The notes under the pieces were generated by a model, which had not been told where the DNA came from, did no database searches, and saw only the letters and a list, made by a program, of their open reading frames with translations. A program made the position numbers and the translations under genes. Shown here in pieces: positions 60,062-60,190 of a stretch of DNA of 64,000 bases (position 1 is the stretch's first letter; each line of letters begins with the position of its first letter). Origin of the DNA: Escherichia coli (GTDB lineage Bacteria > Pseudomonadota > Gammaproteobacteria > Enterobacterales > Enterobacteriaceae); assembly GCF_013315695.1 (NCBI RefSeq), contig NZ_CP054353.1; one strand, written 5' to 3'.

Positions 60062-60065
60062 GTGC

Positions 60066-60144
60066 TTATCTCAAAAAAGCGCAATATTGAGATAGTGTAT
60101 AGCAGGAAAGAGAAACTATCTCAAAAAAAGCAAGTTTTGAGATA
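60066..60144. promoter_or_regulatory. Two related palindromes (TATCTCAA-N12-TTGAGATA at 60066-60093; CTATCTCAAAA-N8-TTTTGAGATAG at 60115-60144) immediately upstream of the Fic gene; candidate operator pair
   Basis: Read directly from the sequence; AT-rich arms without a following U-tract argue against simple terminators. Confidence 0.45.
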
Positions 60145-60190
60145 GTTGAAAAAGCGGCTGACAACTCGCCAGCCGTTGTGGGAATGATGA

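Follow-up and report, generated by a model that had tools for sequence, protein, structure and literature searches.

Two related palindromes upstream of a Fic-winged-helix-turn-helix gene in Escherichia coli as candidate operators for autoregulation

In a window of 64,000 nucleotides of Escherichia coli DNA (RefSeq assembly GCF_013315695.1, contig NZ_CP054353.1; "the window" is used below for this whole stretch) a gene for a Fic protein with a domain of the winged helix-turn-helix (wHTH) type at its C-terminus is preceded by two related palindromes, here called P1 (proximal) and P2 (distal). Our analysis of the sequence indicates that P1 and P2 are probably the operators through which the Fic-wHTH protein represses its own promoter. 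The palindromes are single-copy, their arms are constrained, they travel together with the Fic gene and they co-vary with the recognition helix of the protein that it encodes. An earlier note on this DNA had proposed that they are operators of a dimeric regulator, with the helix-turn-helix (HTH) domain of the Fic protein as the obvious binder, and this proposal is supported by the co-travel of site and gene, by the fixed position of the sites, by the covariation of helix and half-site and by precedent. We infer that the protein physically binds both sites and that the sign of the regulation is negative.

Results

Both palindromes were recovered within 86 bp 5' of the Fic ATG, in the gap between the yiaY stop (60191) and this ATG (60061, minus strand), which measures 129 bp as had been stated in the earlier note. 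The 8-bp arms and the 12-bp spacer of P1 had been described correctly, with coordinates that were one base low (60066-60093 instead of 60067-60094), and P1 ends 5 nt before the ATG. For P2 the perfect arms and the 8-bp spacer stand as well, except that the arms are 13 bp (60114-60147) and not 11 bp long. The distance between the two centers, previously put at about 49 bp, is 50 bp. P2 contains a core of the P1 type (TATCTCAA-N12-TTGAGATA) at 60117-60144, and the two elements can also be read as a 30-nt direct repeat that is 80% identical. Because 50 bp corresponds to 4.8 turns at 10.5 bp per turn, we make no claim about the phasing of P1 and P2, and the argument that their spacing would place them on the same face of the helix was dropped.

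The pattern TATCTCAA-N6-14-TTGAGATA is matched twice in the 64-kb window and not once in 100 dinucleotide-preserving shuffles. Elsewhere in the window the half-site (a 12-mer with at most 2 mismatches) is not enriched, as beyond the four arms there is one match, at 51510, which is at chance level. Further copies of the motif were also searched for among 5426 complete E. coli genomes, a check that the earlier note had suggested, with blastn and 60062-60150 as the query. The 2080 genomes with any match carry the palindrome region at a median of one place per genome (maximum 2), always on the chromosome. In blastn against plasmids the region was absent from true plasmids, as two "plasmid" matches are 4.9-Mb chromosomes with a one-palindrome allele. 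The one match inspected outside the yiaY-aldB interval (H70, upstream of yegS) is 25 nt long with E = 9, which is chance level. One place per genome, and two copies in the 64-kb window, rules out a dispersed intergenic repeat of the repetitive extragenic palindrome/bacterial interspersed mosaic element (REP/BIME), enterobacterial repetitive intergenic consensus/intergenic repeat unit (ERIC/IRU) or similar kinds. The result that the earlier note had named as refuting its proposal, a repeat family dispersed over many unrelated loci, was thus looked for and not found.

The association of the palindromes with the gene extends far beyond Escherichia. A protein search with the Fic protein returned more than 2000 relatives, and by scanning one genome per species with an alignment of 23 relatives we obtained 80 loci whose encoded proteins are 37-95% identical. 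They range from E. albertii (95%) over Pantoea, Pseudescherichia, Photorhabdus, Buttiauxella and Siccibacter to Xenorhabdus, Aeromonas, Pseudomonas, Marinomonas, Alteromonadales, Leptolyngbya (Cyanobacteria) and Sulfurovum/Campylobacteraceae, at 37-45%. Sites were scored with a fixed geometry of 8-bp arms and a 12-bp spacer, and 1378 windows elsewhere in the same loci served as the control. The best proximal site scores 8/8 in 26 of the 80 loci, as compared to 8 of the 1378 control windows, and 7/8 or better in 37 loci, as compared to 40 control windows. In the relatives the proximal palindrome ends 0-7 nt before the start codon, which can be called with confidence as M1, K4, P6 and P7 hardly vary, and in most loci with two sites the center of the second palindrome lies 49-51 bp upstream of that of the first. 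The family consensus is tAtcTCAA-N12-TTGAGAta, and the version in Campylobacterota is ATAACTCA-N12-TGAGTTAT. The genes that flank these loci vary between genera. Relatives with 40-76% identity, in Enterobacterales, Pseudomonas, Alteromonadales, Cyanobacteria and Campylobacterota, have the 28-bp palindrome in genomic contexts that are unrelated. When all flanking open reading frames (ORFs) around 79 related loci were compared with each other, no common neighbor gene, be it an antitoxin or a separate regulator, was found, and the only synteny was that within the Pseudomonas fluorescens group.

The same association was seen when we went from the site to the gene, by searching metagenome contigs for the exact motif of 16 specified bases (at least 120 loci). 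Among the metagenome matches listed (at least 120), a Fic-family member is encoded at 18 loci, and at 16 of these 18 the motif precedes the estimated start of the gene by the expected 2-5 nt and/or 53-62 nt. Nine of the Fic loci among the matches listed have both sites, and six are new relatives from outside Escherichia. Two loci are ambiguous, one with an estimated offset of -1 (L157) and one in which the match is limited to the C-terminal portion of the gene (L193). The Fic-less motif matches listed number 117 (102 metagenome and 15 viral), and a locus whose Fic-domain match is weak and distant, and 6.5 kb away from the motif (L172), was counted with them. They are a heterogeneous group, in which 47 fall within long ORFs and the others resemble unrelated hairpins. 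We regard the Fic-less matches as the background of a short A/T-rich pattern in a very large collection. The 15 exact-motif matches on viral contigs are heterogeneous and none adjoins a Fic gene, so that these contigs give no sign of a phage-borne operator.

Within E. coli, the yiaY-aldB interval occurs as three alleles. The Fic gene with both palindromes is carried by about 1575 of the 5426 complete genomes (about 29%), including CFT073, NU14, ST131 and O157:H7, and the same unit is found in E. albertii. The K-12-type allele, in the remaining genomes, is an empty site in which nothing but the outer 9-13 nt of the distal P2 arm is left (the scar reads CAACTATCTC joined to TGTAACCC on the minus strand), and the third allele, in about 503 genomes, has a single diverged palindrome and lacks Fic. 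What is present or absent in E. coli is the Fic gene plus the palindromes alone. We compared the window (58760-58775 and 60135-60150) with DH5alpha (L001, 440-535) and strain 98190 (L003, 4150-4270). Both Fic-less alleles have a common junction, TATCTC joined to TGTAA, in which TAA is the old Fic stop codon, and the K-12 allele equals the one-palindrome allele minus the DNA between its two direct TATCTC copies. This suggests that the Fic-less alleles arose by successive deletions and are scars of a lost Fic unit, and K-12 appears to carry the scar of a lost operator. The presence of the gene in about 29% of the genomes is compatible with a role in defense and is not evidence for one.

The arms of both palindromes are kept where other positions change. 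We aligned the control region of eight versions (five E. coli lineages, STEC299, E. albertii and one metagenome contig, L133), in which 10 of 88 positions are variable. None of these falls in the 32 core-arm positions (p ~0.008) and none in the 50 positions of the extended arms (p ~1e-4). Both spacers, the DNA that separates the two sites, the -10-like element and the bases adjacent to the ATG account for the variation. STEC299 differs from the window in spacers only, and in STEC299, E. albertii and L133 all differences in P2 are in the spacer and none in the arms.

These data also bear on an explanation without any regulatory role, in which the palindromes would be structures left behind when genes moved, for instance sequences for recombination or insertion, or hot spots for deletion. 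The polymorphism of the locus in the three alleles described above, and deletion junctions that lie exactly at the TATCTC arm in both Fic-less alleles, are what such remnants could give. However, the locus has no integrase, transposase or target-site duplication, both palindromes are on one side of the gene only, and a distance to the start codon and to the -10 element that is fixed across phyla is a property of a promoter and not of the end of a mobile element. Purifying constraint on the arms, while the spacers drift, points the same way. The junctions are better explained as deletions between repeated arms, as a consequence and not the purpose of the repeats, and we consider this explanation very improbable.

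A further line of evidence connects the half-site with the protein. Among proteins with the sequence CSYNTA, 65 of 68 half-sites have a C at position 4 (ATCTCAA or GTCTCAA), and among those with CAYNTA 18 of 22 have a T there (ATTTCAA; Fisher 2e-12, uncorrected for shared ancestry). The E. coli residue aligned with this Ser/Ala position is S396, just before the predicted recognition helix. The Ala state is found in two separate clades of a neighbor-joining tree (Pseudomonas; Pseudoalteromonas/Parashewanella), each nested among Ser-bearing relatives. Other variants of the helix go with other half-sites, as NTAR..LK proteins (Siccibacter, Xenorhabdus) pair with ACCTCAA, NTARKYL proteins (Campylobacterota) with AACTCA or AACGCA, and the AAYNTVS protein of Aeromonas with TTTTTCAA. 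N398, T399 and A400 in the predicted helix are invariant throughout the family, in line with the invariant CTCA core of the half-site. The Fic HTH is our candidate for the binder because Fic is the sole gene that always accompanies the site, because the core of the helix is invariant and because its variable residues track the half-site.

The covariation is difficult to reconcile with P1 and P2 being operators of a different, host-encoded regulator, with the Fic HTH binding elsewhere or non-specifically. Such a regulator could be suspected, since no single Pfam HTH match in the C-terminus of Fic is strong (E 0.003-0.5) and since for Coxiella Fic2, a protein of the same fold class, DNA binding is reported as regulating enzymatic activity and not as classical repression (PMC10628234). 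Against this, site and Fic gene co-occur in several phyla and in unrelated neighborhoods without any common neighbor gene, changes in the half-site follow the Fic recognition helix, including two independent events of Ser-to-Ala with C-to-T, and E. coli gains and loses gene and sites as one unit. As the site follows Fic across phyla without a common neighbor, a separate regulator would need to be universally present and to co-evolve with it, and we judge that there is rather little chance of this.

The positions of the palindromes relative to the predicted promoter suggest how the Fic protein could repress its own gene. When 37 orthologue loci were aligned with P1 as the anchor, a TG-n-TATnnT element was found directly next to the left P1 arm, as in CGCC-TATAAT-TATCTCAA of Leptolyngbya or TGC-TATTGT-TATCTCAA of a gammaproteobacterial metagenome-assembled genome. 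The corresponding elements predicted in the window are given in Table 1. A transcription start near 60089 would place the center of P1 at about +9.5 and that of P2 at about -41.5. The sole Shine-Dalgarno (SD)-like sequence, GAGA (60072..60069), sits in the ATG-proximal arm of P1. Several relatives have the SD in the spacer and not in the arm, and wherever it sits P1 would, at the level of the DNA, cover start site, leader and ribosome-binding site. In each palindrome the centers of the half-sites, which a dimer would contact, are about 20 bp (about 68 Å) apart. P1 would lie over the predicted start, the short leader and the ribosome-binding site, and P2 over the -35/upstream region. Occupied sites would exclude RNA polymerase, and therefore the level of a potentially toxic AMP-transferase would be kept low and self-limiting, i.e. 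by negative autoregulation. P1 would be the primary site, as nearly all relatives have it, and P2, found in many of them, an auxiliary one.

One lineage deviates in the -10 region. In E. coli EC17GD31 (L223) the equivalent of window position 60097 is changed so that TATACA becomes TATATA, which makes TATACT, a better -10, in the alternative register. Possibly, this change may raise the strength of the Fic promoter in the EC17GD31 lineage.

Several points weigh against autorepression through P1 and P2. A consensus sigma-70 scan of 59950-60300 called no promoter, with TATACA uncalled because it lacks a T at position 6. The distance from TTGAGA to the -10 is 19 nt in many relatives. The covariation comes from two clades for Ser/Ala and from single clades for the other variants, with ancestry uncorrected, and in a large clade of the Pseudomonas fluorescens group the site is present only in degenerate form. 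P2, with its center near -41.5, may have an activating role. The precedents of CccR and SoFic discussed below are an architectural analogy and not orthology, because identity is 17-20% and the operators differ, and a literature search by neighboring genes and by protein accession found no paper on the Fic gene between yiaY and aldB. Finally, P2 looks like a terminator in a lenient scan (13-bp stem, tail TCTCTTTCCT), and as RNA it folds with -14.1 kcal/mol (z -6.0), as compared to -7.3 kcal/mol (z -2.3) for P1. A TTGAGA -35 at 17 nt was considered as a feature of the family and rejected, as it holds in Escherichia and not in the many relatives with 19 nt, and the -35 assignment is weak.

The terminator-like pattern of P2 and the folding of both palindromes as RNA belong to an explanation at the RNA level, in which P1 would be a hairpin that hides the Fic ribosome-binding site, as a translational switch or thermosensor, and P2 a back-up yiaY terminator that insulates Fic against read-through. 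A P1 hairpin would pair the SD-like GAGA, and the arms change together across relatives, which a pairing constraint would yield as well. However, the arm sequence itself is kept beyond pairing from Cyanobacteria to Campylobacterota (CTCA(A)...(T)TGAG), and mismatches between the arms show no wobble bias on the sense strand (G-T 23 vs A-C 22). The predicted mRNA would be unable to form the P1 hairpin, because the -10-like element abuts the left arm so that most of that arm is untranscribed, and RNA from the predicted start folds with -3.7 kcal/mol (z -0.48) as opposed to -7.3 for the full palindrome. A 12-nt loop on an A/T-rich stem of 8 bp is also weak for a switch, and an RNA element would not be expected to have a half-site identity that tracks amino acids of the HTH. 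Rfam 15 gave no match up to E 1 on either strand of 59800-60400. As to P2, the earlier note had stated that no U-tract follows the palindromes. However, P2 on the minus strand is followed by TCTCTTTCCT and was flagged in the lenient scan, in which P1 was not. P2 lies upstream of the predicted promoter, and P2-like sites recur beside Fic genes whatever lies upstream, also at loci without an upstream gene to terminate. As an intrinsic terminator P2 was rejected on its 3 G-C of 13 pairs, its interrupted tail and the canonical yiaY terminator just upstream. Altogether, we find hairpins with these functions an unlikely explanation.

The features of the protein itself are given in Table 1. The Fic motif and the inhibitory motif are invariant across the family alignment of 23 sequences. 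An AlphaFold2 (AF2) model made from 23 relatives (predicted local distance difference test score, pLDDT, 88.5; predicted template modeling score, pTM, 0.83) predicts at the C-terminus helices 367-378, 386-393 and 397-409 and strands 413-417 and 423-427, i.e. three helices and a two-strand wing, and the modeled fold is that of a Fic-wHTH protein. Foldseek aligned the model over about 355-373 columns with Coxiella Fic2 (8cil), SoFic (3zcn, 3eqx), Dde_2494 (4rgl) and 7xux, at 17-20% identity. At the level of sequence Pfam gives a cluster of weak HTH matches at residues 361-414 (among them HTH_DeoR, E 0.003; range 0.003-0.5). The SoFic model of PADLOC, which represents a single-gene type of anti-phage defense, matches residues 96-428 (E 1.2e-43, 148 bits). 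No NCBIfam family reaches its cut-off for the Fic protein, and because its score with the NCBIfam SoFic equivalog is 40 bits, where 550 are needed, we do not regard the protein as a SoFic orthologue.

Residues 1-95 (window 59777-60061) form an extra N-terminal region, confidently modeled as helices and a small sheet. Sequence matches to the SoFic models start at about residue 90-96, and no Pfam family matches residues 1-95, for which a part in dimerization or target binding is conceivable.

On the minus strand the gene order near the palindromes is selA, selB, yiaY (60191-61342), Fic and aldB, and the tested stretch of the window is 100% identical to E. coli strain CFSAN061771. The yiaY terminator (stem 60175..60155, then a run of T5) folds with -14.2 kcal/mol (z -3.3), separates yiaY from the Fic control region and is kept in the Fic-less E. 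coli alleles too. On the other side, about 107 bp (58658-58765) lie between the Fic stop and the start of aldB, in sequence that Fic-less strains keep, and in Fic-positive strains read-out transcription from Fic would run into the aldB promoter region.

Table 1. Position of the Fic gene, its motifs and the elements of its control region in the window
Feature	Position	Strand	Description
Fic gene, 431 aa	58766..60061	-	Pfam Fic PF02661, E 1.7e-19, residues 177-281
Class II-type inhibitory motif S129-SQL-E133-G134	59660-59677	-	precedes the Fic motif within one polypeptide
Fic motif, residues H264-275	59237-59272	-	fits HxFx(D/E)GNGRxxR; catalytic His is H264
C-terminal wHTH, residues ~367-427	58781-58963	-	AF2 model
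Predicted recognition helix, residues 397-409, after S396	58835..58873	-	AF2 secondary structure
P1, proximal palindrome	60067..60094	-	TATCTCAA-N12-TTGAGATA; imperfect extension to 60065-60096
Predicted transcription start	60088..60090	-	~7 nt 3' of the -10, inside the left P1 arm; leader ~28 nt
Alternative predicted -10, TACACT	60099..60094	-	overlaps TATACA
Predicted extended -10, TG-C-TATACA	60096..60104	-	read from the sequence; followed by C and the left arm of P1
P2, distal palindrome	60114..60147	-	AACTATCTCAAAA-N8-TTTTGAGATAGTT, 13-bp perfect arms
Predicted -35, TTGAGA	60119..60124	-	17 nt upstream of TATACA, inside the gene-proximal P2 arm
yiaY intrinsic terminator	60150..60175	-	CGGCTGGCGAGTTGTCAGCCG followed by CTTTTTC; 9-bp stem, 6 G-C pairs, T-tract

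Discussion

The closest precedent for a Fic protein that controls its own promoter is CccR of Yersinia pseudotuberculosis (YPK_0951; Wang et al., Nat Commun 2022), a class II Fic protein with a C-terminal HTH and dimer-dependent autorepression (PMC9755527). This autorepression was demonstrated with a lacZ fusion (3.3-fold), by electrophoretic mobility shift assay with residues 201-380 and by isothermal titration calorimetry; the DNase I footprint covers AGATAATCAT-N26-ATGATAATCT near the -35/-10, mutation of the palindrome or of the dimer interface abolishes binding, and in the crystal the DNA-binding helices are 70.2 Å apart (PMC9755527). We take PDB entry 7xux (380 aa) to be the structure of CccR, judged by chain length, title and release date. 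Both proteins have the class II inhibitory (S/T)xxxE(G/N) motif and a C-terminal HTH, and the model of the window protein aligns with 7xux over about 356-360 columns. Both also have inverted repeats in their own promoter region over core promoter elements, where in our case the promoter is a predicted one, and the spacing of about 68 Å between half-site centers would match the helix separation of 70 Å in CccR.

The differences are equally clear. The window protein is about 18-19% identical to CccR, and phmmer finds no more than the Fic core (E 1.5e-11). CccR has a single site of 46 bp (10-bp arms, 26-bp spacer), whereas the Fic gene has two elements of 28 bp (8-13-bp arms, 12-8-bp spacers) at a distance of 50 bp and with a different half-site, TATCTCAA. 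The window protein has the extra N-terminal region of about 95 residues. CccR adjoins a type VI secretion system effector locus and is secreted, whereas the window gene is a solitary insert between yiaY and aldB, and binding is proven for CccR while it is predicted for the window protein. The low identity, together with the different sequence and spacing of the operator, rules out that the window protein is a CccR orthologue.

Dimeric SoFic of Shewanella oneidensis (SO_4266/mloA) binds the first 100 bp upstream of its own start codon, and the monomer does not (bioRxiv 10.64898/2026.07.09.737422). The window protein has the same Fic-wHTH architecture, and Foldseek matches its model to 3zcn/3eqx with E 3e-11 and a TM score of up to 0.69. 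The SoFic-bound fragment F1 (Table S2 of bioRxiv 10.64898/2026.07.09.737422) contains a repeated ATGTCGAT, including a palindrome ACATGTCGAT-TGA-ATCGACAT, and further single copies. In our reading of F1, in which the authors left the site unmapped, this repeat looks like SoFic's own operator, and it is unlike the one in the window.

Among known structures the model is closest to Coxiella burnetii Fic2 (8cil), a DNA-binding Fic-wHTH protein (Foldseek E 1.5e-12, 373 columns; 19% identity). According to the title and abstract of the paper on it, DNA binding of Fic2 induces (de)AMPylation and the target is host histone H3, and no operator in its own promoter is described there (PMC10628234), in which it differs from what we propose for the window protein. 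The two-operator logic of P1 and P2 would be that of AbiE, in which, going by a summary in a paper on CccR, a winged-HTH antitoxin binds cooperatively to two similar inverted repeats and negatively autoregulates the toxin unit (PMC9755527). In AbiE the binder is a separate antitoxin and the toxin a nucleotidyltransferase, whereas enzyme and repressor domain are one polypeptide here, and the two systems are unrelated in sequence.

EcSofic of E. coli H397, which has the catalytic H194, acts as a toxin against phages and has a downstream antitoxin of 47 aa, AS1 (PMC12249575). It is a different, shorter paralogue, and the window protein was ruled out as a member of an EcSofic/AS1 pair by its length, by its catalytic His (H264 vs H194) and by the lack of room for a partner gene downstream, because only about 107 bp of conserved aldB promoter follow the Fic stop.

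The Pseudomonas fluorescens-group clade mentioned above occupies one syntenic chromosomal position (L020, L024, L026, L029, L031, L033-L035, L038-L040, L042-L044, L046-L048, L051-L054, L067, L079) and has half-sites that are degenerate or arranged in another way, such as TGTACTCAAG...TTTTTGAGACAG and TATTGAGTCAG, in place of clean 8+12+8 sites. Possibly, the regulation of Fic may have changed in this clade.

Two variants of the autoregulatory circuit are conceivable. In a weaker one, P2 could activate at low Fic levels and P1 repress at high levels, which would give a set-point circuit. In a bolder one, a Fic dimer on its own palindromes could allosterically hold the AMP-transferase inactive or de-AMPylating, and lost contact with the DNA would free an active toxin; phage-induced degradation of the chromosome, a phage decoy or changes in supercoiling could then be the triggers. 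We give this operator-as-sensor variant an outside chance, and if it is true the operator would be the sensor of a one-gene abortive-infection system.

We see no new principle in the proposed autorepression through P1 and P2, because autorepression by a Fic-HTH protein is already established for CccR. To our knowledge, the CccR operator is the only one that has been mapped among Fic-wHTH proteins. By analogy with CccR the logic would be the same, while the half-site, the 20-bp spacing of half-site centers and the tandem layout of two sites appear to be specific to this Fic family. In the literature searched we met neither the family-wide operator model proposed here nor the correlation of Ser/Ala with C/T.

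Fic-wHTH proteins are widespread, with about 1000-1800 proteins of this domain organization (bioRxiv 10.64898/2026.07.09.737422), and some of them are anti-phage toxins or secreted effectors. Our results suggest an operator model for a separate, large family, in which the consensus site usually overlaps the transcription start and the ribosome-binding site and is in many cases accompanied by another one about 50 bp upstream. They also suggest a candidate rule for specificity, in which Ser or Ala before the recognition helix would go with C or T at half-site position 4. This would open a route to the regulatory sites, and possibly the regulons, of Fic-wHTH proteins from sequence alone. For E. 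coli, K-12 is a natural null that has only the operator scar, and with the gene in about 29% of the complete genomes the species offers a natural test bed for this regulation.

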